DNA of 37,383 nucleotides from a virus (IMGVR_UViG_2737471869_000016), one strand, 5' to 3'. Positions 5,923 through 25,864 are shown, counted from the first letter of the stretch. The notes: a model not told the origin generated them from the letters alone. Numbers and translations are program-made.

Positions 5923-5927
5923 CTAAA

Positions 5928-9355: not shown

Positions 9356-9380
9356 TTTTTGCATCTCTTAAACGTGGAGA

Positions 9381-9638
9381 ATGATTATGCCGTTAAAGTG
9401 CCCTAAGTGCGGTAGTCGGAATACAGTCACAGAAACTGCCGGAAAGATAGCAGAAGTGACTCGCGATGACCGGTTCCTGACATCGACATCCGGTTATATT
9501 AGCCCGGAGCAATTACCAGAATTGCTTAAAGAAATCATCAGGGCGATACAACGTCTCTTTAGATTCCTTGAACAGCGTGAAAGGAATAATGCGCCAGTGC
9601 TGATCTGCAAGGATTGTGGATATTATGAAAGAATATAG
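9381..9638 (+). CDS. Zinc-ribbon protein (85 aa), function unknown
   Basis: Two CxxC pairs (CPKCG near N-terminus, CKDCG near C-terminus); SD-like GGAGA upstream. Confidence 0.55.
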   Translation: MIMPLKCPKCGSRNTVTETAGKIAEVTRDDRFLTSTSGYISPEQLPELLKEIIRAIQRLFRFLEQRERNNAPVLICKDCGYYERI

Positions 9639-9684
9639 ATGACCACTGAAGGCAATTCCAGATTCTTTAGCCTGTCTATGTAAC

Positions 9685-9713
9685 CCCGATACTTAAAACG
9701 TATCGGGTTTTTT
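9685..9713 (+). terminator. Rho-independent terminator
   Basis: CCCGATAC-(7 nt loop)-GTATCGGG perfect 8-bp stem followed by TTTTTT. Confidence 0.7.
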
Positions 9714-9731
9714 GTTTATGAGGATTATTCA

Positions 9732-10103
9732 ATGAAATTTGTCTCGAACTGGCAAGACCTGCCGTCGCTCCTTCTTCCGGAGTCAGTAATGAGTCTGTTG
9801 AAAACAGAGCTGGTACTCCCATTTGAAGATGAATACTCTGCAATGAGTTTCTGGGATGAAGTTGGGGTGACATTAATATATGTCGAGCCCGATGATGTGC
9901 CTGAAGATATTAAAGCGCAGGTATTAAATGTGATTCATCAGTTAATTGCAAATCCAGAATTTGTAGTCCGTCTGACAGATGACTATTACCTGATGCTTTC
10001 TGTTACGGAAGATAACGGGAACGGTATTTATCTGTTATTTCACCCCGATTGCCCTCTGAAGGGTATTGATTTATTAATTTCTATGGCCGAATCACGCTAT
10101 TAA
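9732..10103 (+). CDS. Hypothetical acidic protein (123 aa)
   Basis: ORF-track frame; GAGGA SD upstream; first gene of a three-gene plus-strand cluster. Confidence 0.6.
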   Translation: MKFVSNWQDLPSLLLPESVMSLLKTELVLPFEDEYSAMSFWDEVGVTLIYVEPDDVPEDIKAQVLNVIHQLIANPEFVVRLTDDYYLMLSVTEDNGNGIYLLFHPDCPLKGIDLLISMAESRY

Positions 10104-10128
10104 ACACAAGCAAAACCAGGAACGCAAA

Positions 10129-10662
10129 ATGAGTAAATCAAAATTAGTTAAAAATAATGTTGAGTCAGTTTCGAAGGAGATTAAAAATGAGGCAGAGGTT
10201 ATTCATGAAAATCTCAGTGCAGATGAACAAACATTATCTGATATAAAAGACTATCAGTTGCTCATTGAAACAGGCCAGGCAGAAAAAATCAGTCCTAAGG
10301 CAAGTGGTATGCTGACATGGCAACTGGCGATATCAGAGGTGGACAATGAACTTTATCTTCGTCTGGTGGCAAATGGCTGTGGAGGGTTGTTCTCTAAGGA
10401 CTGGATCTCACTTTCAAAGATTGCAACCGTTCTGGAAACACAACCTGCTACCGGCTTCTCATCCGGAGTATTCAGGCCGTTATTCAAAGGGGCAAGCGCC
10501 AACAATGCAGGTTTTCTGGCTGCTGTTTTACGCTCCCCGGATATATGTCTGCTGGAGGCACATCCAGAGAAGTTATTTACTCATGTATTATACCCGGACT
10601 GGAGGGAGCGGTTGAATAAACTTAATACGATCAGTAGCCAGGAAAAGATTACAGAGGATTAA
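10129..10662 (+). CDS. Hypothetical protein (177 aa)
   Basis: ORF-track frame; 25-nt gap after previous gene. Confidence 0.6.
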   Translation: MSKSKLVKNNVESVSKEIKNEAEVIHENLSADEQTLSDIKDYQLLIETGQAEKISPKASGMLTWQLAISEVDNELYLRLVANGCGGLFSKDWISLSKIATVLETQPATGFSSGVFRPLFKGASANNAGFLAAVLRSPDICLLEAHPEKLFTHVLYPDWRERLNKLNTISSQEKITED

Positions 10663-10734
10663 TTTATTTCCTGCACTGTTATACAACCAGAAATCACCAC
10701 ACACCGCTATTTACTTTCTAAAGGAAAATTTATT

Positions 10735-11169
10735 ATGCAAACCCAATATGCCTTAAAACAGGCAGGATTAACTCTGCCTGTTACTAAAGAATTTCAGCAG
10801 CATATTACTACTCTTCTGGCAAATCAGGTTTTACAAAAAATAACTGAGGCAGTGGTTATTAATTTCCGTGATCCGGACTACAGTGCAGAATCCGGGGGCT
10901 TTCATCCCGTTGAAATACGGTTTATCCGTAAGAATAATGAATGGTATTTTGATTATGTCACAGATTTTAGTTATATGGGGCGTGTCTACCCTGAGCTGGA
11001 AAAAGAAATTGATTTTTGCTGGTCGGGGAATTATGTCTTCCATTATCTGATTGGGGATATTTTACTGGCAGCAGAGAGGAATGAACTCTGGTCCCTGTGG
11101 GAGCGTAATTTTATGGAGTATCTCTCTATGGGGATTTACCGGGTAACGGTAACTGTGGAAAGTTGTTGA
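10735..11169 (+). CDS. Hypothetical protein (144 aa)
   Basis: ORF-track frame; followed by terminator hairpin at 11283..11313. Confidence 0.6.
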   Translation: MQTQYALKQAGLTLPVTKEFQQHITTLLANQVLQKITEAVVINFRDPDYSAESGGFHPVEIRFIRKNNEWYFDYVTDFSYMGRVYPELEKEIDFCWSGNYVFHYLIGDILLAAERNELWSLWERNFMEYLSMGIYRVTVTVESC

Positions 11170-11282: not shown

Positions 11283-11313
11283 CACGGGGGATCTCAGATC
11301 CCTCGTGATTTTT
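11283..11313 (+). terminator. Rho-independent terminator
   Basis: CACGGGGGATC-TCA-GATCCCTCGTG hairpin (one G-T wobble) followed by ATTTTT. Confidence 0.6.
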
Positions 11314-11360
11314 GCCCCCTATGGTGCATTCTCCAGTAGCAGGGTGATAACGGTTAATCC

Positions 11361-11396
11361 ATTACCCCAACGACAGTATTACACCGGTAATAAATG
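11361..11396 (+). repeat. Copy A of a diverged direct repeat (25-bp core ATTACCCCAACGACAGTATTACACC)
   Basis: Matches 22147..22171 with 2 mismatches in 25 bp; flanking similarity extends to ~45 bp; contains internal inverted hexamers ATTACC/GGTAAT. Confidence 0.6.
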
Positions 11397-11470
11397 TTCA
11401 TGAATACAGTCAGTTATGTGGGTTTTGAGGTGGACTATGTCATCGTTGACGATAACTGAAGGTTTTACAG

Positions 11471-11698
11471 ATGTATAAAACTCGCGGTGAAAGGATCGCA
11501 GAAAGGCTGTGCTGGATATTACTTCAACTGTATACCGGTAATACGGTATCGGTTAATGATATATGTCAGCGTTTCGCGGTCAGTCGCCGAACCGGACAGC
11601 GTGATTTGTTGAGAGTTGAAACTGTAACGGAAACTATTTCACCTGGAAGGGTAAGGCTGGCAAATTTGATAAGGGAACGAGTTAGACGAAATTTTTAA
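11471..11698 (+). CDS. Small HTH protein (75 aa) resembling the N-terminal HTH of WYL-type regulators
   Basis: ICQRFAVSRRTGQRDLLRV parallels the N-terminal HTH of the 300-aa WYL protein ([20 protein letters not shown]). Confidence 0.5.
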   Translation: MYKTRGERIAERLCWILLQLYTGNTVSVNDICQRFAVSRRTGQRDLLRVETVTETISPGRVRLANLIRERVRRNF

Positions 11699-11733
11699 TC
11701 GAATCCATATCAATACTATAAAATATGAAAATT

Positions 11734-11759
11734 AACGGGAGTAAATATATACTCCCGTT
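11734..11759. terminator. Bidirectional terminator-like hairpin between convergent genes
   Basis: AACGGGAGTA-(6 nt)-TACTCCCGTT perfect 10-bp stem; T-rich tracts on both sides. Confidence 0.5.
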
Positions 11760-11779
11760 ATAATGCAACCTTTTTTTAA

Positions 11780-12598
11780 CTACTCAAATGATATTAATTT
11801 AGGTGCGACAGTGTTTTTATGATGTGTTGAATTTGCAAGATTAATAATATCATGAAATGATTTCATGTCGTCGTCAGTGATTTCTAGGGCTGGATCAGCT
11901 AAATCGGCACAGGTAACATTTAACCAGTGTGTTAATGAATCAATCCTGTTTGAAGTAATATATTCAGTGTGACCAACATTCCACTTCCAGTTGATTATCC
12001 GAGCTGGTCTGAATCTCACCTCCCGAACCCCAATTGGTGTTACTGACTCAACGAGAGGGTATATCGTGTTAAGTACTTTATCATGTTCACTGTAGATATT
12101 TAAATGCCCCATTTTTGAACCGTAAGCCATTTTCATTATGTTCTCTGTATAACTTGTTATTGGGGTGGCTCCGGCCATAGAGATTGTTAAGAGAATATTA
12201 TCATTTTTAATATAGGGTAATGTATTGTTTATTAATCGAGTCCCTAAAGAATGACCCATTATGATCACATTACGCTTTTCTTTAACGTATATCTCGTTTA
12301 TTACGCGTGCTAATTTTTCTCTGTTATTAACTGCTGCTTTCGTTGCATTATACCAGGCCTGACGCGCTTTAAATGGGATGGAGATTGATGACAATAAAGG
12401 AGATGTTCTCAGGGGGAAGAGAGTATATAGCCCCCACTCGTTCGCTATGTCAGAACTTAATATGGATAGTAGATTTGCCGATTCCCATTTATAGTATCTG
12501 ACATCAAGGCCACACCCTGCTTTAATTCGGTTAAACCATGATATATCATTTTCGGTCAGAAACCCTGATACAACAAGAAGAACCGGGCATTTTTTCAT
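11780..12598 (-). CDS. Alpha/beta-hydrolase fold protein (272 aa), putative serine esterase/lipase
   Basis: Nucleophile-elbow motif GHSLG (VIIMGHSLGTRL); candidate acid/base residues downstream (EHDKV); AT-rich gene immediately downstream of the WYL regulator on the same strand. Confidence 0.65.
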   Translation of the reverse strand: MKKCPVLLVVSGFLTENDISWFNRIKAGCGLDVRYYKWESANLLSILSSDIANEWGLYTLFPLRTSPLLSSISIPFKARQAWYNATKAAVNNREKLARVINEIYVKEKRNVIIMGHSLGTRLINNTLPYIKNDNILLTISMAGATPITSYTENIMKMAYGSKMGHLNIYSEHDKVLNTIYPLVESVTPIGVREVRFRPARIINWKWNVGHTEYITSNRIDSLTHWLNVTCADLADPALEITDDDMKSFHDIINLANSTHHKNTVAPKLISFE

Positions 12599-12659
12599 GG
12601 TAACTCCATTTTTTAGCTTACAAAAATAGCACTCAATGAAAATTATATTATCCGTGTCA

Positions 12660-13562
12660 TTACGGGGCGTTACTTGGCTGGGTGTAACGTTTCAGTGCGG
12701 ATTGTATATCTTCAGCAAGTTGTTGACGGATTGAGGCCGGTTGTATTACTTCGACATCCGGTATCCAGTATTTCATTAAAGGCATTATCTGATCTGTGTG
12801 TGTTACACGTGATATCACCAGTAAATCGCCAGACCGGGAAGTATGAATTATTTCCTGTCCTGGCAATAGATGACGGTGGGTAAACCACGGAGCAACATGT
12901 GCGGAAACTGAAATAAGAACTTCGATAAGGTCTTCGCTATACCAGATACCATCTGTCTTTTCTATTTTTTCATTAATTTCGGGGATTATCCTGAAAGAGA
13001 TATTACTCATGCAAACGTCTTTGACAGATGAGATAACAAAGCTTTTTAATGTACTGTCATGGGCGGCAGCGAGATACCACAATCCGTTGTCATTAACCAG
13101 TCTGTATGGCTCAACAGCCCGAAACTCTTTATCTTTGTAATTAAAATTTACTTTCTTCTGTGACAGGATGGCATCGGATAATACATTCAGAATTGACATG
13201 AATGATCCGCAGTTTTCGTATGGACGTTGTTTTATCAGAAACGGGTTGTTTTTCGTGTTACCTAACAAAATACTCAGTAGTCTGTCATCCCAGCGAGGGA
13301 ACAGCCCTTCAATACCCAGGATGCGCGTGAAATGACGTAAATCAGCATTGCTGCGTTGACCGAGAACACCGTCAGACAGGCGATAGCGACCATTTTGTCG
13401 AATCAGATTAAGATAGGACAGGCGCTGAGTAAGATCACGACGGATAGTTTTTTCGCAAACGTTAAATTCCTCAGATAACTCCCGGAAGGCTAGTGACTCA
13501 CCATTGTTCAGGCGAGTTAATATCAATCCGAGTCGATATCCAAGTTTATCGTGCTTACCCAT
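12660..13562 (-). CDS. WYL-domain transcriptional regulator (HTH + WYL), BrxR/CapW-like (300 aa)
   Basis: N-terminal HTH ([20 protein letters not shown]) and central WYL signature ([20 protein letters not shown]). Subfamily assignment is by analogy. Confidence 0.8.
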
Positions 13563-13611
13563 TCGTTTATCCGGTTAATGCCAGCGAAGAGGATATTTTC
13601 AGCAAAGTAAC

Positions 13612-13722
13612 GGACAGGATGAGTCCACTTTTACTGTGACGGAGAAAAAAATTAACTCATTAATTATCAATATATTAAAACATTGCTGGAATCATCGAAT
13701 AACATATGGACTCATCCTGTCC
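13612..13722. promoter_or_regulatory. Perfect 16-bp inverted repeat pair (GGACAGGATGAGTCCA / TGGACTCATCCTGTCC) spaced by 79 bp, 50-160 bp upstream of the WYL regulator start
   Basis: Arms at 13612..13627 and 13707..13722 are exact reverse complements, around an AT-rich spacer in the divergent promoter region between the WYL gene and the 108-aa gene. Confidence 0.55.
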
Positions 13723-13941
13723 ATGTGTATTTTTACGTTCAGGGTGATAATTATCATCCTGACCTGTACATGACCTGTTTTTGCTGCATATTTGACCATG
13801 CACTTTTGCCATCAAGTCGGAGAGGCAGGGGGGAACGTAAGATACGAAGGTTAGAGAGGTTATCAGCAATTACAATGATGATTAATATTTTCATAATATC
13901 GGAGAACATCATATTAGTTGAAATAACATAAAGGTGGTTCT

Positions 13942-14268
13942 ATGTATTTACATATCAGAAAGTATCAACTCGTAAATGCGAGATGGCGTGATGTCATTGA
14001 TCTGACAGATTATGAAGAAACAATAAGGCAGATTGTCGGTACATTATTTGGAAATGATTTTATTGAGGTCAGCGTTGAAACAAATTTTTTTACTCTGACA
14101 GTAAACAGTACAAGCAGTAAAATACCACACGGCATACTGGTGAATATGGGGAAAAGGCTGGCGGCTAATCTCCAGAGTATCACCTGTCATGCCATGCGGA
14201 TCTATCATGTTAATGGCCATCCTGACGCGCGGCAGTTATTTCACTGTTTTGATGTCGATTGCCTGTGA
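13942..14268 (+). CDS. Hypothetical protein (108 aa)
   Basis: ORF-track frame; divergent from WYL regulator, convergent with the polymerase gene. Confidence 0.5.
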   Translation: MYLHIRKYQLVNARWRDVIDLTDYEETIRQIVGTLFGNDFIEVSVETNFFTLTVNSTSSKIPHGILVNMGKRLAANLQSITCHAMRIYHVNGHPDARQLFHCFDVDCL

Positions 14269-14283
14269 TTAAGCCCCCAACTT

Positions 14284-14312
14284 CTGTTAAAGGAGTTGGG
14301 GGAGATTTAACG
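14284..14312. terminator. Hairpin between convergent genes (possible bidirectional terminator)
   Basis: CCCCCAACT-(11 nt)-AGTTGGGGG perfect 9-bp stem just downstream of both the 108-aa gene and the polymerase gene; no strong T-run. Confidence 0.45.
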
Positions 14313-14316
14313 GTTA

Positions 14317-16980
14317 TCAGGCTGGAAGACAGAATGTCGGATATTTACGGGCTATGATATCCATCAGTGACTTCATTCGCGGTGTTACAGAACTAAATTT
14401 CATTTGGGGTATTTTTGCTCTTACCGCATTTTTTACATCAGTCACCGTTACTGAATAGCCTTCTGACGTCAGCCATTCAGCAACCTCTTTACAGGAATAA
14501 CTTTTTTTATCTTTCAGCATCAGCCCCCATTGGCACTGAGTCAGCGCCCGGAGAAATAGTCTGACTAAAATATCATCACTACGTTTGCTTCCGACTTTTA
14601 GTTTCATATCAGAAAACACCGTCCGGCAATAGAGAAAATCACACCAGTCATCCCAGTCAGCCAGGGTCTTCAGTGTATGCGTTTGCCGCCAGTCGTCGAA
14701 AAGAGAGCGTTGCTGCAGAGCCTCTTCCATATTATCCCATGGGCGGGAAAACATCAGTAAATGCCCTTCATTCATGGCGGGCTGTACGGGCTGGCGTTTG
14801 AAATCGAATTCCAGATTAAGACGGATATCCTGTTCCCGGGATACCAGATCGCTTTCCGACAGCCACATCTCACGCGTTGATATCAACGTACTTCGGGATA
14901 ACGTCTGACCGGGTAAACGATTAAGGTAAAGATCTACCATATAGTCGTTATAGTCACTGCGTGGAATATCGGCAGGAGGTTTGACGCCAGCCCTGGCATG
15001 AACAACAGGTTTTCCCTGAATAGCTCTATAGGTTAACTGCCCCCGGGTTTTCATGGCGATAAGCTGGCTGACTTCATGCTTACATGTCAACATTGATGAA
15101 CCCGGATCAACAATATCGCACAGCGACTGGAAGCGGGAAGACAGTGGACCGCTCATGTTTATCTTGTTAAGTGGGCAATTTGTCAAAAAGCCATCGGTTG
15201 TGACGCTGACAACCGATGAATCAGAAGGCAAAGCATTCATGAGTTCCCCGGCAACGGCGCGGATAAATCCCGTTACATGCGCAGCAAAGAATGGCTGAGT
15301 AACCGATGATGGCGGGAGGGATCTGTTTAATCCACGGGCAGTATCAAAGGCGGTTTTGGCGCGAAGGCCCTGAGCAAGTTTGCCATAAAGCGAGTTGCCA
15401 ATTTCTTTCCAGAATTTCTCCTCCAGAGAACCTTTAATATGGCGATTACGGTTCTCACGGACCTGTTGAACAAAGGGAAGAAACACCGATGTTGATTCGC
15501 TGTTATGTGGGGAGATGTCACAGATCCAGGGGACGATGATCCCATTATGGATCGTCATCTCTGCCCCGAGCGACAGAGCAAGTTCGATTTCAGGTGCCGT
15601 TGCCCATGATTCGCCACTTAATGGAAAGAATAACCCATATTGATCGGTCCGAACCGGCAGGCTGGGATAGGGAACTGATTCCGGGAACCGAAATGTGACA
15701 AGCGCAAATCCCATTACATGCCCACAGTAATCGTCCGGATTTTTACTGAGGCGGATGTTCCCGTAATCGGGTGTGAGGATATCTAATAGCCCGGTGGTAT
15801 ACGCTCCAGCCAGATCGTAGTCATACCAGTGATCAGACGGTGTAACCCCCATCATAAAACACTCATTGCGTCCGCCGTGGTAACAGTTGATCGGGAACGT
15901 TTCAAACAACTCTCTTGAAGGAACACTGGCGGGGTTTTTAATCGTCCGGAATGCCTGTTTTTCCGTGAGCCAGAGTTCACGGGTTTTAATGTGTGTCCCA
16001 AGGCAGACTTCAGGAGACATATTGTTTTCTTTAAGTGTTTTGGTGAACCGTGAAACTGCCATCGCCCCGATGGTGGCGGGGACACGATCAATCATCAGCT
16101 CCCGGGCGCAAAAATTGCGAACCTGTAAAGCATAACGAACCGCAATCTCGGCATCCCGCAGAGCATAGGCTTCAAACCCTGCTCTGTCGCCCAGAAGATA
16201 TTCACGCATATTGGTTATGGAATAAGGTGCAGGAATGGTGAGTTTGGGAAGACCCAGTAATTCACCACATTCAGCCAGACCCATACCCCCGGGAGTGATA
16301 AGCAGTGTATCGATGAAAGCTACGTTACTGCAACGCGGAGGGGAAGTTCGTTTGTCAAACATTATCTGTTCAGTCTTTACGCGACGTTCCTGCTGTTCAT
16401 CAAAATCGATACCGTAACGATTTTTGAAGCTGCTGACAGTACCGCGTATTCCTTTCAGAAGAATTTTGTAGTCTGACCAGAAATTGGCAAAGGAGGCGAT
16501 ATCCGCACGAATGAAATGCGCATATATATTAATAATACCGGGCCATTTTGTAATCACACCCGTTTCAAGAAGCGGTGTAATCGTTTGACAGAGAAATTCC
16601 TTAAAAGACAGCCGGGATTTTTTCTGTGAGTCAGGTGGATAGATAATGTTCGATATACCTGTATTATCGGGTAAGACAACATAACTCTGATATGACAGAA
16701 TATCATTCTGTCGTGTTTCAGGGTTGAAAACATATTCGGTATCAAAACCGATATGGAGCGTCAGGTCGTTTGAAATCACAGACACGTTTTTTGATGCAGG
16801 TGGCATCACAGGATAATCATCAAGCGTTTTAGGTCTTTTACGATTGAGCACTGGCTCTGAAGTCACGGACTGATACCCCGAGGCGGCAGCGAGGATATCC
16901 TGCAAATTATGGCTCATAGTTAACTCCGAAAAAATGCCGGGAGCTGTGTCCCGGCATAAAGAATCAAGATTTAATAACAT
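14317..16980 (-). CDS. Family-B DNA polymerase of the primer-independent type (piPolB), pipolin hallmark (887 aa in ORF track; likely start at internal Met 16917, RBS GGAG)
   Basis: PolB motifs read in the translation: Exo I IGFDTEYV (DxE), Exo III YALRDAEI (Yx3D), motif B KEIGNSLYGKLAQG (Kx3NSxYG), motif C-like VTTDGF, and AMKTRGQ, i.e. the KTRG motif that I recall replacing KxY in piPolBs. Neighbours are integrase and AlpA/Xis-like genes. Confidence 0.85.
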   Translation of the reverse strand: MLLNLDSLCRDTAPGIFSELTMSHNLQDILAAASGYQSVTSEPVLNRKRPKTLDDYPVMPPASKNVSVISNDLTLHIGFDTEYVFNPETRQNDILSYQSYVVLPDNTGISNIIYPPDSQKKSRLSFKEFLCQTITPLLETGVITKWPGIINIYAHFIRADIASFANFWSDYKILLKGIRGTVSSFKNRYGIDFDEQQERRVKTEQIMFDKRTSPPRCSNVAFIDTLLITPGGMGLAECGELLGLPKLTIPAPYSITNMREYLLGDRAGFEAYALRDAEIAVRYALQVRNFCARELMIDRVPATIGAMAVSRFTKTLKENNMSPEVCLGTHIKTRELWLTEKQAFRTIKNPASVPSRELFETFPINCYHGGRNECFMMGVTPSDHWYDYDLAGAYTTGLLDILTPDYGNIRLSKNPDDYCGHVMGFALVTFRFPESVPYPSLPVRTDQYGLFFPLSGESWATAPEIELALSLGAEMTIHNGIIVPWICDISPHNSESTSVFLPFVQQVRENRNRHIKGSLEEKFWKEIGNSLYGKLAQGLRAKTAFDTARGLNRSLPPSSVTQPFFAAHVTGFIRAVAGELMNALPSDSSVVSVTTDGFLTNCPLNKINMSGPLSSRFQSLCDIVDPGSSMLTCKHEVSQLIAMKTRGQLTYRAIQGKPVVHARAGVKPPADIPRSDYNDYMVDLYLNRLPGQTLSRSTLISTREMWLSESDLVSREQDIRLNLEFDFKRQPVQPAMNEGHLLMFSRPWDNMEEALQQRSLFDDWRQTHTLKTLADWDDWCDFLYCRTVFSDMKLKVGSKRSDDILVRLFLRALTQCQWGLMLKDKKSYSCKEVAEWLTSEGYSVTVTDVKNAVRAKIPQMKFSSVTPRMKSLMDIIARKYPTFCLPA

Positions 16981-17602
16981 TTACTACAGATTTGAAAATA
17001 TCGGTTTTGCGTGATTCATCATCTGCATGGATAAATGAAACGAGGTTCCTGCCTGCTTTAATCAGGATGCCACGTTGCGTCTTTTCCACAGATGGGGTGA
17101 CGCGTGCAGATAACAGACAATTTTCATGTAACTGAAGAAACTTTTTTGAGGCGTAGCCGCCATGCAGTCGGGCTTTAATTTCATTATACATATCATCAAG
17201 AGAACCGGGTTCTCCTGATTCACTCAATACCGGATAGCCCTTCTTATCAAAAAGGCTGAGGATAGATTTACCATCATGTTCGAACAAGGTAACACCGTAA
17301 ATGTATTTCATTCGAAAGGTGAGGGCGTCGGTGGTGTAGATCTCCTCCTGACAACTGAAATTTTTGAGACGCCTGGCTAATTCATTAAAAACAGCACGAG
17401 CAGTAGCCGTGTCCTGCAGGGTGTAGGTATAAAGTACGAAGCCATCTGTGCCGATGAGCTTTACTAAGTTGTCCATAATCGTGATAGCGAGAACTAATGC
17501 AAAGGACAGATATTTTTCATCGTTGTCTACAGCTGTGCTTGCTGATTCGGGAATAATGTTCAGTGCATTATTAGCGTTATTTTCCGTGTTCTTAGTAACC
17601 AT
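16964..17602 (-). CDS. Hypothetical protein (212 aa) between the AlpA/Xis-like gene and piPolB
   Basis: ORF-track frame; overlaps the AlpA-like gene by 11 nt; no motif recognised. Confidence 0.6.
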   Translation of the reverse strand: MVTKNTENNANNALNIIPESASTAVDNDEKYLSFALVLAITIMDNLVKLIGTDGFVLYTYTLQDTATARAVFNELARRLKNFSCQEEIYTTDALTFRMKYIYGVTLFEHDGKSILSLFDKKGYPVLSESGEPGSLDDMYNEIKARLHGGYASKKFLQLHENCLLSARVTPSVEKTQRGILIKAGRNLVSFIHADDESRKTDIFKSVVNVIKS

Positions 17603-17792
17603 TTATATCACCTTTAAGTTTGTTTTGACGATGTGCATTTTCCCACTCAACAATATCGTCAAGAGAGAATCGTATAGCCCGCCCAATTCTGATGAAGGGC
17701 GGGAGTTTTCCGGGGTTGCGCGATATATCTGACGCAACCGTGGATGCAGAAAGATTAAATCTTTCTGCGAACTGCTTAATGGTTAAATACAT
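17592..17792 (-). CDS. AlpA-family HTH protein / putative excisionase (66 aa)
   Basis: YLTIKQFAERFNLSASTV ... IRIGRAIRFSLDDIVEWE matches the AlpA/Xis pattern; immediately downstream of the integrase. Confidence 0.75.
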   Translation of the reverse strand: MYLTIKQFAERFNLSASTVASDISRNPGKLPPFIRIGRAIRFSLDDIVEWENAHRQNKLKGDINGY

Positions 17793-17934
17793 AAACCTCC
17801 GGTTTCAGAGAATAAGAAGCCACGCGGATTTAATATCAATCCACATTCTGTGATGACTTAATGCAGGGCCCTGCAGAAGCATGCAATGACAATACCGTCC
17901 TTAAACGAGTGTTGCATCAATCACGAATCACAGA

Positions 17935-19071
17935 TCATAGGTTCATTTTTGTGTCATAACTTTCTATGACCTGAGAAACCACTGCGTGTGATGTCGCTGC
18001 ATTGTGAAAAGCGTAGCGACGGGTCGCCGTGAGTGAATGGTGATTTAGCAGATGGGAAGCGATTGCAATATCCCCGGTCGCCTGTAGTACCCGGGTGGCA
18101 AAGGTACGGCGCAGGTCATGCATCCGCAGGTTATCAATGTTGGCATCCCGACAAATACGGGCAAAGGTTGCACGCGGATATGCCAGAGGGCGGGCATTGT
18201 CGGTTAGTTGTGGAAAAATGTAAGTTTTGCTGAGCATCAGGTCTTGCTGGCACTGGACAACTGCAATGGCTGGAGGTGCAAGTGGGCAGGTGAAAGGGTG
18301 TCCGGACTTTGTATCAGGCAGTATGAGTTGATGCATATCCGGGTGCCAGTACTCCCATTTCAGGGTACATACCTCACCAATACGCATCCCCGTATAAAGA
18401 GCAAGCAATATAGAATCAGCTGCCGGTGTTTGCAGCGCTGTTGCCGCGTCAATAAAGCGCGGGATTTCTGTCGCTGATAGTGTGCGATAGCGAATGTTAT
18501 TTTCTTTCAGATAGCGGACATGTGACATCGGGGAATGTGTGATCCATCCAGCACGTACTGCCAGAGAGCATATTTTGGACAATATTGCGAGGATACGGTT
18601 TACTGTTGACGGACGTAATTTTTCCCGTAAGCCAGCAGCATATTGTTCTAGTTCTCCTGCCGTGATGTCGCGAAGTTGCCGCTTGCCCCAGAACGGGCGA
18701 ACGTAGAGGTTGAGTTTTGACAACTCTGACTGAGGACTCTTTTTATACAACTGCAAATCCGGTAGCCACAGGTCATTGATGGCCTGTTCCACAGTGAATC
18801 GACGGGACTGAACCGCAAGACGATTTTTATCAGCAAGCAGTTTCATCACATGCTGACGGGCATCCTCAACGCAGAGCTGAGGGAACTGACCCAGGGTTTC
18901 ATATATACGCTGATTGTTTATAGTGGTACGAAAGGCCAGCGTGATCCGATTGGGATACACCAGAGCACGCAGGTTTTGGCAGTGAATATCACGGTATTCC
19001 TGACAACCCGTGAGGGGATGTGGAAGTTGGTGAATTGATTTGTTGCTGAAACGCAGATCCAGAATAGGCAT
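17935..19071 (-). CDS. int: Tyrosine site-specific integrase (378 aa)
   Basis: Catalytic motifs LALYTGMRIGEV, HDLRRTFATRVL, LLNHHSLTATRRY (R..HxxR..Y). Confidence 0.9.
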   Translation of the reverse strand: MPILDLRFSNKSIHQLPHPLTGCQEYRDIHCQNLRALVYPNRITLAFRTTINNQRIYETLGQFPQLCVEDARQHVMKLLADKNRLAVQSRRFTVEQAINDLWLPDLQLYKKSPQSELSKLNLYVRPFWGKRQLRDITAGELEQYAAGLREKLRPSTVNRILAILSKICSLAVRAGWITHSPMSHVRYLKENNIRYRTLSATEIPRFIDAATALQTPAADSILLALYTGMRIGEVCTLKWEYWHPDMHQLILPDTKSGHPFTCPLAPPAIAVVQCQQDLMLSKTYIFPQLTDNARPLAYPRATFARICRDANIDNLRMHDLRRTFATRVLQATGDIAIASHLLNHHSLTATRRYAFHNAATSHAVVSQVIESYDTKMNL

Positions 19072-19213
19072 CGTATTTCTCCTGTAAATGACACTGGAAA
19101 AATACGATGTGAGGTTATAGTCTGCCAGTTACAGCTTTCACAGTTCATCAGGTGAAAAATGCTGATTCGGATATAATGGCAACACAATTCCATGTCGCCA
19201 TTATATTAAGAAA

Positions 19214-20344
19214 CTACAGTTTCATGATCTTGTTCGCTATTTTTTCGAAGTAAACCTCATTCTTAAGAAGAGTGATATTGTTAGTTTGAACACCCAGACC
19301 ACTGGACGTTGACTGGAAATTCATTGAACCACTTATCACTGTGGACTTTCCTGATAAAAAGGAAATCAACTCCTTGGAAGATGGTGCCCACTCAGGGTTT
19401 AAGAGTAATGCAATATAGATATATGTCTTACGAAGCAATTGTTCGATATCTTTTTTATGCCCTGTAGTGTTTTGCTTACCTTTAATGCAAATAGATTTGA
19501 TTATGAACTCATCAGGGCTGGTTAAAGGCGTTTTAAACTTATTCAGTGATCCATCGTTATGAATGACTTCATAAGGCAGCATAGATAAAATGATCAATGC
19601 AATCATTTTAGGATGATAAAGGTAGTTATCACGAATGATTTTTCCTGCCTTCATTGTATTGAGCGTTGTTTGAATAAATACAAAAAGATATTCAGAGCAA
19701 AAGTAACAAAACACAAGCCAGGATAGGTCAATGGCTGGAATGTTAATATCCTTAGGTAGTTTGTTTAGCCAGTATTCAGACTTCAAAAAGGTCCTGATTT
19801 CAACAGTATATTCATGCATTTTTGCGCTGAAATCAAGCATTGCTACTTGACCTGATTGTTCCGTAACTGTGTGGTCTATAAATGTTAGTGTATTGCACAT
19901 TTTATCCAGCGTGTTTTGAAAACAAGAAAGGAGTTCGGCATTATTATTACCATTAACCGCAGATGAAAGTTCAGTTTTAATAAATGCATCCAGTAGCATA
20001 CAGATTTCTTTCGGAATTACATTTTTACGGGATTGCTGTGAATAGAAATGTACTGCCAGTAAATTAAAGGCAGTGCACTCCTTTTTTAACCATTGTTCGA
20101 GCACTGGGACGTGCTGAAAAAAATTGATATGCTTAGCAGTAGATGCTGATGGAGACAGTACATGAAGAATATCTACAGCAGGCTTCATTTGCAATATTTG
20201 ATCGGATTCGGTAGTCGTCATTAGTTCCAGTAATTGCTGTTCAGAAAATAGTTTAGACAGGTGATCAATGTCTTTTTGGTATTGATTAAGTTTTGTTAAA
20301 TTCCCCGGTATACGGGTTACATTGTTTTTCATTTTCTCGAACAT
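19214..20344 (-). CDS. Hypothetical protein (376 aa), AT-rich
   Basis: Long ORF in a strongly AT-rich block; no motif recognised; location beside an R-M operon. Confidence 0.6.
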   Translation of the reverse strand: MFEKMKNNVTRIPGNLTKLNQYQKDIDHLSKLFSEQQLLELMTTTESDQILQMKPAVDILHVLSPSASTAKHINFFQHVPVLEQWLKKECTAFNLLAVHFYSQQSRKNVIPKEICMLLDAFIKTELSSAVNGNNNAELLSCFQNTLDKMCNTLTFIDHTVTEQSGQVAMLDFSAKMHEYTVEIRTFLKSEYWLNKLPKDINIPAIDLSWLVFCYFCSEYLFVFIQTTLNTMKAGKIIRDNYLYHPKMIALIILSMLPYEVIHNDGSLNKFKTPLTSPDEFIIKSICIKGKQNTTGHKKDIEQLLRKTYIYIALLLNPEWAPSSKELISFLSGKSTVISGSMNFQSTSSGLGVQTNNITLLKNEVYFEKIANKIMKL

Positions 20345-20850
20345 AATTTTATCCTCGTTTGAATTATTACACTGATTTAAAAAGTAGCATGTCGTGTTAG
20401 CGAGGTAATCCTAAAACGTGAATGGCAGCAGGGGCAAGCTTGAATCTGCGTAAGGATATGGCTTAAATTTAATGGTGTAATCAGTGAGTTAGAGGCTTAT
20501 AGCCATTTAAATACAATAAGTTATGATGATATGTGGCGGGTGTAAATCGGTTAGTTTTTATGGTTAAAATATGAGCGTTGTGAGATTTGAGATATGATGG
20601 TTTTTAAATTACATACAAGTTACCCCTGATGATCAGTATTAATACCAGAATGATACATGCGAGCAGCACCCAATCCTGTACTATTGATGATGGCTATACA
20701 AGGCTGAAACTTTGAGTTGTATGTTGCCAGGAGGATTAATGTCCACAAGGCCCAGATAGAATGATTTCTCAGATATTAAAGTTGAAACTTATTAACTATG
20801 TGAGAGGCTGATATTTATTCAGTCTCTCATTTGTTTTTATCGTTTTAAAG

Positions 20851-22086
20851 TTAAAAGGAAATAAATAATGCCTTCCGCCGATGAATCAATATGCTGATTT
20901 CCCTCAAATCAGCCTCAATACTACCAACATCACCAAAGACTTCACCTCTAATCTCACTTCGATTTTTCATGAAATTGGTGCTTAATAAGCTTTCTTTTTT
21001 TAATGCCATTAATTTTGGTTTTATATCGTTATAGAAGTGCTTATGGCTTACCCTGATGTTATGAATCGAGTAGTAAACTGTTTTATACATCAAAAATATA
21101 AGTAACTGGCCGAGAAGATATTCTTTTTCAATGTATTTATATTGAGAGGATTTTTCGCGTTTCGCCAGGTAGAAAACATGAGGTGCGATGATGGTGGGGA
21201 TAAAATCCAGTGCTGGAGAGGTTTTGGTTTTTTCTGTTTCTCTTCCGGATTGAAGATGTTGAAGTACAGAGTATGCAATGCTTAATATTATGGCATTGCT
21301 TATATTATTAATTTCAGTTGGGTAAATATGCAGGTTGCTTATCAATTCTGAAAGGCAAAGTAAAACACCAGTGATGTTGGGTTTTCTGCCAGAGATTGTG
21401 GTGCTGTTGAAAATGTGACGATTCTTACGACTTATATTGACAAGTTTATGAGTGCAGAACTCTATATGTTTGACGATTTTATCTTGACTATTTTTAATGT
21501 ATTTTGAAATGTTAGTGATCCGGCCATTCAACGTTAGTTCATCAAGCAATATATCATTTTTAATATTGCGAATTTCATCGCAATGTTTAGATTCAAAAAC
21601 TATCTCATGTAATACATAACTCGAAGTATTGCGTGACGATGCTGATATGTAATCTAAAATGGAATGCTCGACTTTGATTTTTTGTTTGTATTTTTTAATG
21701 CACTGTTTGATTGTTTTTTGTAGAGTATTTGAGATGTGTTTTTTATATTCTTTTAGAAAATCTTGCTCTAAAAAGAGTGAGGAGAAGATCAACTGCTGGC
21801 GAGATAATTTAATCTCAGGCTTGATCAATTTAATCCGAAAAACTCTTCCCTCCAACTCATAGCTGAACATGGAAGATAAGTCATAGTGGGGTGATAAATG
21901 TTCGAGTAACGACATTCGTGTATTCATTAGCCGTTTGAATTTATGGTCAGCATACATAAGTGTTTTTTTTATTTGCTCATCATAAAGTGGGCCGATAGCG
22001 CAGTTGGCAATACTCATTCTATCCGGAGACCTCCAGTCAGCAGGGGAATCACATTGACGGTCATCATTACTATCAAAGGGCATCAA
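20851..22086 (-). CDS. Hypothetical protein (411 aa), AT-rich
   Basis: Long ORF in an AT-rich block; Lys/Ile/Asn-rich; no motif recognised. Confidence 0.6.
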   Translation of the reverse strand: MMPFDSNDDRQCDSPADWRSPDRMSIANCAIGPLYDEQIKKTLMYADHKFKRLMNTRMSLLEHLSPHYDLSSMFSYELEGRVFRIKLIKPEIKLSRQQLIFSSLFLEQDFLKEYKKHISNTLQKTIKQCIKKYKQKIKVEHSILDYISASSRNTSSYVLHEIVFESKHCDEIRNIKNDILLDELTLNGRITNISKYIKNSQDKIVKHIEFCTHKLVNISRKNRHIFNSTTISGRKPNITGVLLCLSELISNLHIYPTEINNISNAIILSIAYSVLQHLQSGRETEKTKTSPALDFIPTIIAPHVFYLAKREKSSQYKYIEKEYLLGQLLIFLMYKTVYYSIHNIRVSHKHFYNDIKPKLMALKKESLLSTNFMKNRSEIRGEVFGDVGSIEADLREISILIHRRKALFISF

Positions 22087-22146
22087 CGTTGCCGATTATG
22101 GATGATGTCAGCTTCACACACCAGAATGGGTGATATATGGATCATC

Positions 22147-22184
22147 ATTACCCCAACGGCAGTTTTACACCATGGCTAATATGG
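22147..22184 (+). repeat. Copy B of the diverged direct repeat (core ATTACCCCAACGGCAGTTTTACACC)
   Basis: Matches copy A (11361..11385) with 2 mismatches in 25 bp; lies ~60 bp upstream of the 411-aa gene start and ~220 bp upstream of hsdM. Confidence 0.6.
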
Positions 22185-22389
22185 ATGCTATCTTACTAAG
22201 ATAATTGGTTTTTAGCGAGTGACGAGCCAGGTTGTGTCAGTCTGTCTCATGTCGATATTACGGGGATGATGCAAACCTGAATGCTGCGATATTGGCGTGT
22301 CAGGGGAGGCATCTTACGGTATCATTTACCGCAATTTTTAAGATGCAAAGCCCTGCATCGCTAGCTTTTTCTTCAGACCAGGATGATTC

Positions 22390-23913
22390 ATGAACGACAA
22401 AATCAGTCAGGACACGATCAACAAAGCCCTGTGGGCCGCGTGTGATACGTTCCGTGGCACCATCAGTGCTGATACCTATAAAGACTTTATCCTTACCATG
22501 CTGTTCCTCAAGTACATTTCAGATGTCTGGCAGGATCACTATGACGAATACAAAGAACAGTATGGCGATGCGCCGGAACTGATTGAAGCGATGATGGCCA
22601 ACGAGCGTTTTGTACTGCCAAAAAGTGCCAGCTTTTATGCGCTGTACGAACGCCGCCATGAGCCGGGTAACGGTGAGCGTATCGATCAGGCGCTGCATGC
22701 GATTGAAGAAGCCAACGGCACCAAACTGAAAGATGCCGGGAAAAGCGTGTTCCAGGATATTTCGTTTAACACTGACCGCTTGGGTGAAGAAAAACAGAAG
22801 AACACCATCCTGCGCCAGCTGCTGGAAGACTTTGCCGGTGAAGATCTTAACCTGAAGCCAAGCCGTGTAGGTACGCTGGACGTTATCGGTAACGCTTACG
22901 AATATCTGATTAAAAACTTTGCCGCCAGCGGTGGGCAGAAAGCCGGGGAATTCTATACGCCGCCGGAAGTTTCGGACCTGATTGCAGAACTGCTCGATCC
23001 GCAACCGGGTGATACCATCTGTGACCCTGCCTGTGGTTCTGGTTCGTTGTTAATGAAGTGCGGGCGTAAGATTGTCTCCGGGCATGAAAGCCGTAACTAT
23101 GCTTTGTTCGGTCAGGAAGCGATTGGCTCCACGTGGTCGCTGGCGAAAATGAACATGTTTCTTCACGGCGAAGACAACCACAAAATCGAGTGGGGCGATA
23201 CCATTCGTAACCCGAAGCTACTCGATAAAAATGGCGACCTGATGCTGTTTGATATCGTTACCGCTAACCCGCCGTTCAGTCTGGATAAGTGGGGCCATGA
23301 TGAGGCCGAGAACGATAAGTTTGGTCGTTTCCGTCGCGGTGTACCGCCGAAGACTAAAGGAGATTACGCCTTTATCTCGCATATGATAGAAACCCTGAAA
23401 CCGGGAACGGGTCGTATGGGCGTAGTTGTGCCACACGGTGTGCTTTTCCGTGGCTCCAGCGAAGGTAAAATTCGCCAGAAACTGATCGACGAAAATTTGC
23501 TGGATGCGGTAATTGGTCTGCCGGAAAAACTGTTCTACGGTACGGGGATTCCGGCTGCGATTCTGATTTTCAAAAAGCAGAAAGTGGATGACAAGGTGCT
23601 GTTTATCGACGCCAGCCGTGATTATAAGGCTGGTAAAAATCAGAACCAGCTCAGCGCTGAAAATATCCAGAAGATCGTTAACACCTATCGAGAAGGCGAT
23701 AACGTCGAGAAATACGCCTATCTCGCCAGCCTGAAAGAGATTCAGGACAACGACTATAACCTGAATATTCCGCGCTATGTTGATACCTTTGAGGAAGAGG
23801 AAGAGGTCGATTTGCTGGCCGTGCGTAAAGCGCGAGAGCAACTGAAGGTGGAACTGGCGAAACTGGAAACGGAGATGGCAGGTTATTTGAAGGAGTTAGG
23901 TTATGGTGCCTAA
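22390..23913 (+). CDS. hsdM: Type I restriction-modification system, DNA methyltransferase subunit (507 aa)
   Basis: SAM-binding motif I DPACGSGSLL, EFYTPPEV, catalytic motif IV NPPF (IVTANPPFSL). Confidence 0.95.
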   Translation: MNDKISQDTINKALWAACDTFRGTISADTYKDFILTMLFLKYISDVWQDHYDEYKEQYGDAPELIEAMMANERFVLPKSASFYALYERRHEPGNGERIDQALHAIEEANGTKLKDAGKSVFQDISFNTDRLGEEKQKNTILRQLLEDFAGEDLNLKPSRVGTLDVIGNAYEYLIKNFAASGGQKAGEFYTPPEVSDLIAELLDPQPGDTICDPACGSGSLLMKCGRKIVSGHESRNYALFGQEAIGSTWSLAKMNMFLHGEDNHKIEWGDTIRNPKLLDKNGDLMLFDIVTANPPFSLDKWGHDEAENDKFGRFRRGVPPKTKGDYAFISHMIETLKPGTGRMGVVVPHGVLFRGSSEGKIRQKLIDENLLDAVIGLPEKLFYGTGIPAAILIFKKQKVDDKVLFIDASRDYKAGKNQNQLSAENIQKIVNTYREGDNVEKYAYLASLKEIQDNDYNLNIPRYVDTFEEEEEVDLLAVRKAREQLKVELAKLETEMAGYLKELGYGA

Positions 23914-25135: not shown

Positions 25136-25815
25136 AACTGACGAAAAGCGGTCCACTGACTGACCGGGAAATCGACTGGCTGGAAGAAATATTAATGAAG
25201 TATGGAATGGATGATTCTGTACTCTGTTTCTCTGAGCTGGATGGATTGCTGACGGCGATTTTATCAGGTCCAAATATGGTTTCACCCAATATCTGGCTGA
25301 GTGCTATTTGGGGAGGAGGCGATTATCATCCGAAATGGTCATCTGAGAGAGAGATGGAGCGTTTTGTCAGTCTGTGTTTTCAGCATATGAACGATATCGC
25401 TGGTTGCCTTTATGACGCCCCTGAACTGTTTGAGCCGATTTTCAATGAGCGTGAGGTAAAGGGGGAAAAATATACCATTGTGGAAGAGTGGTGTTTTGGT
25501 TATATGAAAGGAAAGTCACTGGATGACTGGTCTGGTCTTCCCGGTGAGTTACGGCCTTCTCTGGAAGTGATCGCTCTTCATGGCGTGGAGAAGAATTTTC
25601 CTGTACTTGAGAAAATGACCGGAGAGCAGTTTGAGAAAAGTATTTCCCTTATTCAGCCTGCTGCACTGGCACTTTATCAGTACTGGTTGTCAGTGAGAAT
25701 GTCAGAGGCATCATCCCGGCCTGTTCCAGTGAAGGGGGCAGAAAACATGCCCGGGCGAAATGACCCGTGTCCGTGTGGCAGCGGTAAAAAATTTAAGAAG
25801 TGCTGTCTGCATTGA
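25132..25815 (+). CDS. YecA-like (UPF0149-type) protein with C-terminal SEC-C metal-binding motif (227 aa), embedded in the hsd operon
   Basis: C-terminal GRNDPCPCGSGKKFKKCCLH is a SEC-C zinc-binding motif; overall length and layout resemble E. coli YecA as I recall it; ATGA start/stop overlap with hsdS. Confidence 0.7.
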   Translation: MKLTKSGPLTDREIDWLEEILMKYGMDDSVLCFSELDGLLTAILSGPNMVSPNIWLSAIWGGGDYHPKWSSEREMERFVSLCFQHMNDIAGCLYDAPELFEPIFNEREVKGEKYTIVEEWCFGYMKGKSLDDWSGLPGELRPSLEVIALHGVEKNFPVLEKMTGEQFEKSISLIQPAALALYQYWLSVRMSEASSRPVPVKGAENMPGRNDPCPCGSGKKFKKCCLH

Positions 25816-25864
25816 TGAATCTTCATGTGACCAGTAGCGAGTAGCGCCAGAAAGAAAAGGATTA

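Follow-up and report, generated by a model that had tools for sequence, protein, structure and literature searches.

Is the gene block around the primer-independent polymerase of an Escherichia coli pipolin an element in its own right, nested within the larger island, and do the two short direct repeats at its ends mark the junctions, or do these repeats have some other origin? The question is raised by a 37,383-nt stretch of DNA (the window), which represents an E. coli pipolin at tRNA-Leu together with an adjoining P2-like prophage (Table 1). Strain 08-00022 carries the same island, likewise at tRNA-Leu, and the pipolin's distal terminal repeat falls outside the window. By Pfam matches and gene order, the window holds the published pipolin core gene set of IntSXT, DUF2787, WYL and IntP2 plus excisionase, and integrases of the type found in its interior have been assigned to the IntP2 group (PMC11551731). 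RefSeq matches of the polymerase ORF are annotated as type-B DNA polymerase, and the ORF is homologous to the piPolBs of other pipolin loci. The catalytic residues of IntP2 are complete (R230, H318-x-x-R321, H344 and Y353), and its gene is followed by that of an excisionase-family protein matching a PHROG annotated as 'excisionase and transcriptional regulator'. The small 75-aa HTH gene near the other end of the block is without annotation in RefSeq.

The original prediction described a 25-bp core present in the same orientation at both ends of this block, with weaker similarity over ~45 bp, and both descriptions hold. Positions 11361-11385 (ATTACCCCAACGACAGTATTACACC) and 22147-22171 (ATTACCCCAACGGCAGTTTTACACC) agree at 23 of 25 nucleotides on the + strand, or at 24 of 26 with the preceding C included (11360-11385 versus 22146-22171), and the wider similarity, which takes in the in-register GGGTGATA, amounts to 33 matches over 44 positions (11342-11385 versus 22128-22171). 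The pair is the top-scoring long-range direct repeat within the window and stands above background: a repeat at least as good arose in 3 of 300 order-3 Markov simulations of the whole window (p ~0.01 window-wide), and for the two intergenic regions flanking the module the Smith-Waterman z-score was 11.2, with none of 300 shuffles reaching the observed score. The inverted orientation of the same two regions scored at background. A position-weight scan of the window returned exactly two strong copies, which score 34.8 and 32.3 bits; the null maximum was 15.9. Bracketed between them, over ~10.8 kb, are the small HTH gene, DUF726, WYL, piPolB, orf212, Xis, IntP2 and a variable slot.

Table 1. Positions of the repeats and neighbouring features, counted from the first nucleotide of the window.
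Feature	Position	Strand	Remarks
3' half of tRNA-Leu	7036..7090	+	terminal attachment repeat (PMC7385651)
Left arm of island: IntSXT-type integrase (8123-9355), three small ORFs, DUF2787 (10735-11169)	8123..11169	+	
Terminator-like hairpin CACGGGGGATCTCAGATCCCTCGTG, then ATTTTT	11283..11307	+	
GGGTGATA, weak repeat extension	11342..11349	+	in register with 22128-22135; 11 nt upstream of each core
Copy A, core CATTACCCCAACGACAGTATTACACC	11360..11385	+	191 nt past DUF2787 stop codon, 86 nt ahead of small HTH gene start
Small 75-aa HTH gene (HTH_11/DeoR-like)	11471..11698	+	first gene within bracketed interval
DUF726 alpha/beta-hydrolase gene (11780-12598) and HTH_DeoR-WYL-WCX regulator gene (12660-13562)	11780..13562	-	
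piPolB, primer-independent family B DNA polymerase, 887 aa	14317..16980	-	pipolin hallmark gene
orf212 (16964-17602, without family match) and Xis-like HTH_17 excisionase-family gene (17592-17792)	16964..17792	-	
Internal tyrosine recombinase IntP2	17935..19071	-	
Variable gene slot between IntP2 and copy B	19160..22145	-	two AT-rich orphan genes here: 19214-20344, 20851-22086
Copy B, core CATTACCCCAACGGCAGTTTTACACC	22146..22171	+	divergent intergenic region, hyp411 / hsdM
Right arm (cargo): type I restriction-modification hsdM, hsdS, YecA-family gene, hsdR	22390..29152	+	

The repeat pair keeps its two positions in all of the IntP2-carrying pipolin lineages retrieved. Both copies are at equivalent positions in D-type pipolins (Scandinavium, Buttiauxella, Intestinirhabdus and an Enterobacter MAG), whose piPolB is ~70% identical, and in the Salmonella (S) lineage, whose IntP2 is 68% identical. 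Although synonymous sites are saturated, the copy B core is identical at 24 of 24 positions across the E, D and S lineages, an invariance at odds with the earlier description of the repeats as degenerate; its right flank is 28-40% mismatched and its left flank is unalignable, at the level of random sequence. Copy A is conserved less tightly: it keeps its place in the D and S types, 86 nt upstream of the HTH gene as in E, while its central 6 nt vary between lineages. The HTH protein itself retains 76-79% amino-acid identity to the D type despite saturated synonymous sites. The hairpin block on the other side of copy A (window 11279-11308), likely the end of the IntSXT-DUF2787 transcription unit, is invariant across seven aligned copy-A sequences apart from one substitution. 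The extension GGGTGATA precedes copy A in both the E and D types; before copy B it is present in the common E. coli variants and absent in the D type. Compared within a lineage, copies A and B are identical at 24 of 24 positions in L008, carry two central mismatches here and four in Salmonella, and differ by seven mismatches in L094.

Direct repeats also flank the Int-Xis-piPolB block in three further lineages whose IntP2 and piPolB are 32-40% and 39-47% identical to those of the window, and the repeats of these distant lineages share with the window pair the signature [T/A]CCCCAA[C/T]G...ACACC. The 57-nt repeat of L105-L107 (z = 11.8) reads TTACCCCAACGACA... on the motif strand, identical to the first 14 nt of E. 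coli copy A, and a 29-nt repeat in L101 (z = 8.5) holds TATCCCCAACG. The motifs of L094 and L102 are CTTCCCCAATCGCCTTATTACACC and TATCCCCAATGG.GCT.T.ACACC, respectively; the two L094 copies, compared alone, are not significantly similar (z = 0.2). The module of L105 is inverted relative to IntSXT/DUF2787 when compared with E. coli, and the motif orientation goes with the module; in L101 the motif is on the piPolB strand, opposite to the other lineages. The motif is absent from the DUF2787 islands without piPolB (L103, L104, L108 and L118).

By these sequence comparisons, the 10.8-kb interval acts as an evolutionary unit distinct from its flanks. Between the window and the D type, synonymous sites of the interior are saturated (pS 0.64-0.85, dS at least 1.45), whereas dS is 0.09-1.1 in the left flank (0.6-0.8 for DUF2787, which adjoins copy A) and 0.32-0.43 for hsdM/hsdR in the right flank. 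Against Citrobacter amalonaticus the interior shows dS of 0.00-0.26 and the flanks 0.30-1.0. Several transitions between these histories lie at the repeats: homology to the D type restarts exactly at the start of the copy B core (blastn blocks), and the crossover of the recombinant L080 falls within -2 to +16 of copy A; a second transition is placed at -8 to +30. At least five unrelated sequences adjoin copy B within 1-5 nt. In E. coli pipolins otherwise 96% identical, the slot holds an unrelated 1.27-kb segment, and in the D type an unrelated 402-aa gene takes the place of the slot genes of the window. Other breakpoints lie 70-500 nt off the cores, as expected from ordinary homologous recombination, and one recombination breakpoint between the window and L015/L038 is situated at about the hairpin.

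Because the repeats mark its two ends and related repeats flank it in distant relatives, the polymerase-integrase block probably is, or used to be, an independent mobile element that has attachment sites of its own. More specifically, we consider it an even chance that the repeats, as counterparts of attL and attR, are the conserved att-type junctions of a discrete element lying within the tRNA-Leu pipolin. Such an element would consist of IntP2, Xis, the small orphan protein, piPolB and lineage-specific accessory genes. A tyrosine recombinase would have joined the circular piPolB element to the IntSXT/DUF2787 island at the core, leaving one core copy at each end of the element, and later exchange at or beside the cores would have given lineages new combinations of interior and flank and brought new genes up against copy B. 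The most plausible candidate for the recombinase is IntP2, with the HTH_17 Xis-like protein as directionality factor; its role is inferred, as would be any continuing recombination at the sites. In this form the suggestion that the repeats bound a nested or ancestral element is favoured by the conserved pair, the distinct interval and the breakpoints at the repeats, with the internal integrase as a putative actor only. The arrangement in which direct repeats bracket integrase and excisionase genes recurs in the window, in the D and S types and in L094, L101 and L105.

Some features fit attachment sites less well. Tyrosine-recombinase core sites typically have an inverted-repeat structure, and inverted core-type binding sites around a 6-8-bp overlap were not found here. 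If the overlap region coincides with the central mismatches between copies A and B, these would impede strand exchange. On the element side of copy B, where a P arm would be expected, the flank is wholly unconserved. Occupancy polymorphism, in the form of an empty site, an excised circle or an attP, was likewise not encountered. No precise A x B deletion product was found in E. coli genomes with the flanks (matches in 503 of 5,426 complete genomes), junction queries returned no circle junction, a search of PLSDB gave no plasmid form, and no hybrid site was found among 73 viral and metagenome loci. The original prediction had proposed asking whether related islands carry or lack the block as a unit, broken at the repeats; replacement of the block was found, but precise absence or a circle never was. 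Strain I4, the only case of natural module loss, underwent an illegitimate deletion in which both repeats were kept.

Known systems offer partial parallels to a nested element. The terminal repeats of E. coli pipolins are likewise conserved direct repeats that flank a piPolB block with a tyrosine recombinase (PMC5695915; PMC7385651; PMC9710591); however, those repeats lie at the island's outer ends and are formed by the 3' part of tRNA-Leu, whereas the present pair is internal, unrelated in sequence and without tRNA overlap. In the window, the terminal repeat is common to the pipolin and the adjacent P2-like prophage. The papers searched describe no internal repeats in pipolins. The de novo search of ExplorePipolin validates only repeats that overlap a tRNA or tmRNA (PMC9710591), so internal repeats would be discarded. 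With nested or tandem ICE/IME accretion, in which every element brings its own integrase and att pair (Bellanger et al., 2014, cited in PMC11551731), the likeness lies in two tyrosine recombinases of different families within one island, in an inner integrase and excisionase bracketed by their own direct repeats, and in differing inner and outer histories. By contrast, independent excision, an empty site or a separate inner element was not found here, and the inner and outer parts form an old and stable association throughout Enterobacterales.

In P2/186-type attP regions, Cox/Apl proteins direct excision and repress transcription. The present locus resembles them in that a small HTH excisionase-type protein comes after an IntP2-group integrase and a conserved site precedes the int operon; it differs in that arm-type or cox-box repeats were not identified and the core has no known sequence similarity to the P2 core. 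Since proteins of the Cox/Apl type combine repression with excision control, a reading of the cores as operators could overlap with that of attachment sites. Such operators, which we regard as unlikely, would be bound by a module-encoded protein (the Xis-like HTH_17 protein, the WYL regulator or the 75-aa HTH protein), copy B controlling the leftward operon of slot genes, IntP2, Xis, orf212 and piPolB and/or the cargo, and copy A the small HTH gene. In every lineage (the window, L008, L094, L101 and L105) the IntP2-proximal copy is indeed upstream of the first gene of a co-directional string ending in piPolB, and the E, D and S types all keep the spacing of copy A ahead of a conserved HTH gene. 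The tighter conservation of copy B suits a selected binding site better than one of two equivalent att scars, and the PHROG match of the Xis-like protein includes a regulatory role. However, the aligned cores show on inspection no dyad symmetry, only two direct AC[C/A]CC pentamers 17 nt apart, and no sigma-70-like promoter overlaps either core in a consensus scan, which is a weak test. In L094, L102 and L105 the distal copy, the counterpart of copy A, lies ~20-65 nt after the piPolB stop codon and upstream of no co-oriented gene, and the modules of L094 and L105 have the motif but lack the WYL and HTH75 genes. Operators also leave unexplained why unrelated DNA segments adjoin the core at the same nucleotide. 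These observations weaken the proposal of shared operator sites. Of the inverted hexamers ATTACC/GGTAAT that had been noted in copy A, both are present; they are probably incidental, because copy A of the diverged lineages lacks GGTAAT.

There is a small chance that a gene-capture system uses the core as its recombination site, where IntP2 would insert and exchange gene blocks. If so, the piPolB module would hop between IntSXT/DUF2787 defence islands, and the hypervariable slot at copy B and a three-copy array in L102, where motifs in the same orientation separate gene blocks, would have arisen by integron-like capture of cassettes, carried out by a tyrosine recombinase that is not of the integron kind and moves together with its own DNA polymerase. 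The duplication in L102 takes in 125 nt of the 3' end of piPolB and is thus not a clean site-specific insertion. The variable slot directly beside a conserved site near a tyrosine recombinase gene, like the L102 array, recalls integron attI/attC. A site of the integron type was rejected, as there is no folded hairpin, IntP2 scores 24 bits against the integron-integrase cut-off of 265, and E. coli has two copies only.

It is improbable that the cores are cis-acting replication or maintenance sites of the piPolB module (an origin, terminus or resolution site), with piPolB, the orphan protein after Xis or a host factor recognizing them. The motif does co-occur with piPolB and not with IntP2-like integrases in general: IntSXT-DUF2787 islands with an IntP2-like integrase and a DUF3987 primase are without it, and have iteron-like repeats adjoining the primase gene. 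The position of one copy directly after the piPolB stop codon in three lineages would also suit such a site. Two direct-orientation copies 5-11 kb apart at the module ends, however, are not an origin-like layout, and piPolB priming is reported to need no specific template sequence (PMC5695915). There is no iteron array, and single-strand DNA folds of the site are not significant (z-scores of -1.25 to +2.05). Conservation of the orphan protein is detectable in the E, D and S lineages only. As to known structured RNA families, Rfam covariance models gave no match at E <= 1 on either strand of 10500-23000.

The least probable reading, to which we give very little weight, is that the cores have no present function and are old scars of retained similarity that anchor RecA-mediated exchange, or, in the extreme version, a chance match; the breakpoints away from the cores, the missing excision products and the modest window-wide p-value would fit it, but the identity of copy B at 24 of 24 positions beside 28-40% divergence has a chance, from mismatch rates, of ~2e-5 to 4e-4 per lineage pair, and the 9-14-nt signature turns up again in de novo repeats from lineages whose piPolB is 39% identical. 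An island of 24 bp is shorter than efficient RecA substrates, and one crossover lies inside the 24-bp core although a 33-nt identical block is available 60 nt away.

The piPolB module of the window is bracketed by two same-orientation copies of a short core, copy A and copy B. With about even confidence, we regard them as attL/attR-type junctions left where a piPolB element, mobilised by IntP2/Xis, entered an IntSXT/DUF2787 island. The original prediction had placed a 25-bp direct repeat at the right positions; 23 of the 25 bases are identical (24/26 with the preceding C added), and the weaker similarity over ~45 bp that it described is borne out by 33 matches in 44 (11342-11385 versus 22128-22171), the in-register weak extension of both copies going back to a common GGGTGATA. 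The pair is the top long-range direct repeat of the window. When the whole window was simulated with an order-3 Markov model, 3 of 300 trials reached its score. For the two module-flanking intergenic regions only, the similarity has z = 11.2 and none of 300 shuffles reached the score, so that the predicted match does stand above background; the same two regions in inverted orientation score at background. A weight-matrix scan found exactly two strong core copies in the window, and the core has no similarity to the terminal tRNA-Leu att.

Features of the window in map order, with the two core copies
Feature	Coordinates	Strand	Remarks
P2-like prophage	1-7090		first 7 kb; replication endonuclease; phage integrase 5928-6929
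tRNA-Leu, 3' half	7036-7090		end of P2-like prophage, abuts pipolin
IntSXT-type integrase	8123-9355		left arm
Three small ORFs			left arm, between IntSXT and DUF2787
DUF2787 gene	10735-11169		left arm, followed by copy A
Copy A core	11361-11385	+	ATTACCCCAACGACAGTATTACACC; sequence match
75-aa HTH gene (HTH75)	11471-11698	+	first interior gene after copy A
DUF726 and WYL regulator genes		-	interior
piPolB	14317-16980	-	interior
orf212, then HTH_17 Xis-like gene			interior, between piPolB and IntP2
IntP2	17935-19071	-	second integrase
Two AT-rich orphan genes			between IntP2 and copy B
Copy B core	22147-22171	+	ATTACCCCAACGGCAGTTTTACACC; sequence match
Type I restriction-modification operon			right arm, after copy B

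The island is an E. coli pipolin, because positions 10500-23000 are 100% identical to E. coli 08-00022, whose island sits at tRNA-Leu, and because the tRNA-Leu 3' half is the attachment repeat that pipolins are described as sharing with a co-integrated myovirus (PMC7385651). Strain 3-373-03_S1_C2 also carries this pipolin. The window holds no intact tRNA, and its prophage and pipolin follow the three-att layout known for ETEC H10407. Gene order was taken from Pfam and RefSeq annotation. IntP2 keeps its catalytic residues (R230, H318-x-x-R321, H344, Y353), and the orphan genes found no family match and no assigned function in PHROGs and NCBIfam. Although unannotated in the RefSeq record and uncalled in eight other assemblies, the 75-aa HTH_11/DeoR-like ORF is conserved (76-79% amino-acid identity across lineages) despite saturated synonymous sites and so probably represents a real small regulator gene. 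A 28-nt palindrome (11733-11760) that separates the convergent HTH75 and DUF726 genes scores as a minus-strand terminator and may work in both directions; a second one (11283-11307) resembles a terminator hairpin.

Diverged enterobacterial (D-type) pipolins were found by a piPolB-based scan with one genome per species, which gave Scandinavium, two Buttiauxella species, Intestinirhabdus and an Enterobacter MAG, with piPolB ~70% identical to that of the window. Both copies occur at the corresponding positions in all of them, and those of one locus, L008, are identical to each other. Copy B forms an island of invariance in the alignments, with an unalignable left flank and a partly conserved right flank, and copy A sits at the end of a left arm that is 83-89% identical overall. 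In the Salmonella lineage (IntP2 68% identical), copy B is perfect and copy A has four substitutions in DNA otherwise uniformly ~65-77% identical to the window. Constraint is far tighter on copy B; in copy A the central six bases vary (GACAGTA, GGCAGTT, GGTGATT). This difference speaks against full equivalence and active recombination of the two sites in E. coli. An E. coli-type copy A variant with a G-to-T change at core position 11 (CCCCAACT; L117, 8631-8651) shows that this position, conserved in the other cores except L094-X1 and L102-b,c, is still polymorphic in copy A. In several E. coli genomes (NZ_CP033096, NZ_CP045190, NZ_AP027886, NZ_CM149864), the copy A match (core plus right flank) coincides with an IS1A copy, roughly at the equivalent of window 11386-11470. 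The hsdM contexts with copy B in MS14385 and PS2C, candidate non-pipolin sites, are not independent occurrences, because they are what remains of pipolins truncated by IS elements at this same tRNA-Leu. Alternative neighbourhoods of the DUF2787 protein were sought across assemblies, and the standard arrangement alone was found.

Per-gene synonymous divergence shows that interior and flanks differ in history. Between the window and D-type pipolins, dS is 0.09-1.1 in the left arm (0.6-0.8 for DUF2787, next to copy A; 0.09 for IntSXT in three of five D-type loci) and 0.32-0.43 in the right arm (hsdM/hsdR), with saturated synonymous sites (pS 0.64-0.85) in the interior. Against C. amalonaticus, the interior is at dS 0.00-0.26, the left arm at 0.30-1.0 and the right arm (hsdM/hsdR) at 0.37-0.43. 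Identity falls from ~85-95% to ~50-70% just past copy A, and the first base of copy B is exactly where window-D-type homology restarts. A metagenomic recombinant, L080, joins an E. coli-type left flank to a D-type right flank with its crossover at -2 to +16 of copy A, and the relationship between L008 and L069 changes at -8 to +30 of the same copy. At least five unrelated sequences abut the copy B core within 1-5 nt, with 0-1 core mismatches and a right flank that is still homologous. The stretch from IntP2 to copy B (19160-22145) is a hypervariable slot, occupied by an unrelated 1.27-kb segment in otherwise 96% identical E. coli pipolins and by an unrelated 402-aa gene in D-type pipolins. Breakpoints off the core also occur: window versus L015/L038 has one close to the terminator hairpin, 70-100 nt before copy A, and window versus C. 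amalonaticus has them near 11035/11480 and 22545. Under the proposed mechanism, a piPolB element mobilised by IntP2/Xis would have integrated into an IntSXT/DUF2787 island, leaving cores at both junctions, and later exchange at the cores would have shuffled interiors, flanks and slot genes.

A piPolB protein search gave near-identical proteins only, and distant lineages (IntP2 32-40% and piPolB 39-47% identical to the window) were reached via integrase homologues. In L105-L107, a 57-nt direct repeat (z = 11.8), on the motif strand TTACCCCAACGACAAAGATTCACA and ATACCCCAACGTCAAAAGTACACA, flanks exactly a 5.2-kb IntP2-Xis-144aa-piPolB unit, and in L101 a 29-nt repeat (TATATCCCCAACGAGCCAATGCAGTACCT; z = 8.5) flanks a 9.1-kb Int-Xis-piPolB block. 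In L094, CTTCCCCAATCGCCTTATTACACC follows the piPolB stop at a distance of 22 nt and TATCCCCAATGGCGCTGTCACACC precedes the gene string leading to Int; the similarity of these two copies to each other alone is not significant (z = 0.2). L102 has three motif copies on one strand, one adjoining DUF2787 as in E. coli. Positions common to the E. coli-like, D-type, Salmonella, L094 and L102 cores are CCCCAA-N2-G-N3-T-N-T-N-ACACC. The L105 module is inverted relative to IntSXT/DUF2787 when compared with E. coli, and motif orientation goes with the module; L101, with the motif on the piPolB strand, is the exception. Just outside its direct-repeat pair, L101 has a 146-nt inverted repeat (1-146 and 9632-9777; 92% complementary) whose arms contain CACCCCAACC, similar to the motif, and which may relate to the flipped motif orientation of that lineage. 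The L102 copies look like a cassette array but do not represent a clean site-specific insertion: a 171-nt duplication (4540-4710 and 5942-6112; 89% identical) flanks a 279-aa gene and is made up of the motif with ~25 nt on its left side, plus ~125 nt from the 3' end of piPolB, which rules out clean cassette insertion.

The motif is absent from four DUF2787 islands without piPolB. Three of these (L103, L104, L108) are IntSXT-DUF2787 islands in which a DUF3987 primase-type gene takes the place of piPolB after an IntP2-like integrase and Xis, and a repeat flanking their modules is marginal (p ~0.02) or absent; the fourth, L118, has no piPolB-sized ORF. Iteron-like GGTAT(A/C)ATCGG(T/C)AT repeats follow the DUF3987 gene in L103 and L104, and a perfect 69-nt repeat, probably derived from a tRNA gene, marks both ends of the whole 13-kb L103 island. 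The distant pipolin L099 is uninformative for the motif question because its integrase layout differs and it has neither motif nor flanking repeat.

The original prediction had asked whether the block is present or absent as a unit with breakpoints at the repeats; several comparisons do place breakpoints at the cores, and precise loss was not seen in E. coli. Among 5,426 complete E. coli genomes, 503 matched the flanks and none held the precise deletion junction (A-left + core + B-right) or the circle junction (B-left + core + A-right). The interior (11386-22146) had no match among PLSDB plasmids, and 73 core-carrying viral and metagenome loci were all ordinary A-type or B-type sites. The sole full-length match to the deletion junction, strain I4 (L002, NZ_CP195978, 9001-9885), was rejected as a precise recombinant: window 11503-22023, the whole piPolB/IntP2 module, is deleted with breakpoints 11502/22024, both copies are intact 259 bp apart, and junction microhomology is just a few bases. 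This loss is an illegitimate deletion.

We observe the repeat itself, how it is conserved and placed, and where the breakpoints fall; IntP2 as the recombinase acting at the cores, and any present-day activity of the sites, we infer. Operator-type binding sites are an unlikely reading of the cores. A regulatory role is possible because the gene string ending in piPolB invariably has the IntP2-proximal copy upstream of it, and such a role could go alongside recombination; however, no sigma-70-like promoter overlapped either core in a promoter scan, the core lacks dyad symmetry, and the ATTACC/GGTAAT hexamers, present in copy A as originally noted, are not conserved across aligned copy A sequences. 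A replication or maintenance site is less probable still, and a functionless scar or chance match is very improbable. Nor was there support for an RNA element (no Rfam match) or an attC-like hairpin (no significant single-strand fold).

The pipolin papers searched describe terminal tRNA-overlapping repeats only, no description of an internal pair was found in them, and current tools delimit pipolins by tRNA-overlapping repeats only. The finding would fit a well-known pattern, in which a nested integrative element brings its own att pair, in a known mobile-element family. It bears on how pipolins move and on why enterobacterial pipolins keep a second integrase and excisionase; the main comparative study gives IntP2 just a 'secondary role' (PMC11551731). 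A deeply conserved pair bracketing exactly IntP2, Xis and piPolB redefines pipolin anatomy: the 'pipolin proper' may measure 5-11 kb (5.2 kb in L105, 10.8 kb here) and sit as a nested element inside a separate IntSXT/DUF2787 defence island, which would also account for the module-wise mosaicism of these islands. If the att reading is true, IntP2 and Xis would yield a piPolB-carrying circle, which piPolB could then replicate, with the junction ...GGGTGATATATGGATCATC-ATTACCCCAACG[G/A]CAGT[T/A]TTACACC-GGTAATAAATGTTCATGAATACAG... and the empty site ...GGGTGATAACGGTTAATCC-ATTACCCCAACG[A/G]CAGT[A/T]TTACACC-ATGGCTAATATGGATGCTATC....

The window's second-best direct repeat (24450-24487 and 25062-25099; 19 identical bases in a 38-nt match) lies inside hsdS and probably reflects the conserved region that HsdS specificity subunits usually carry in duplicate.
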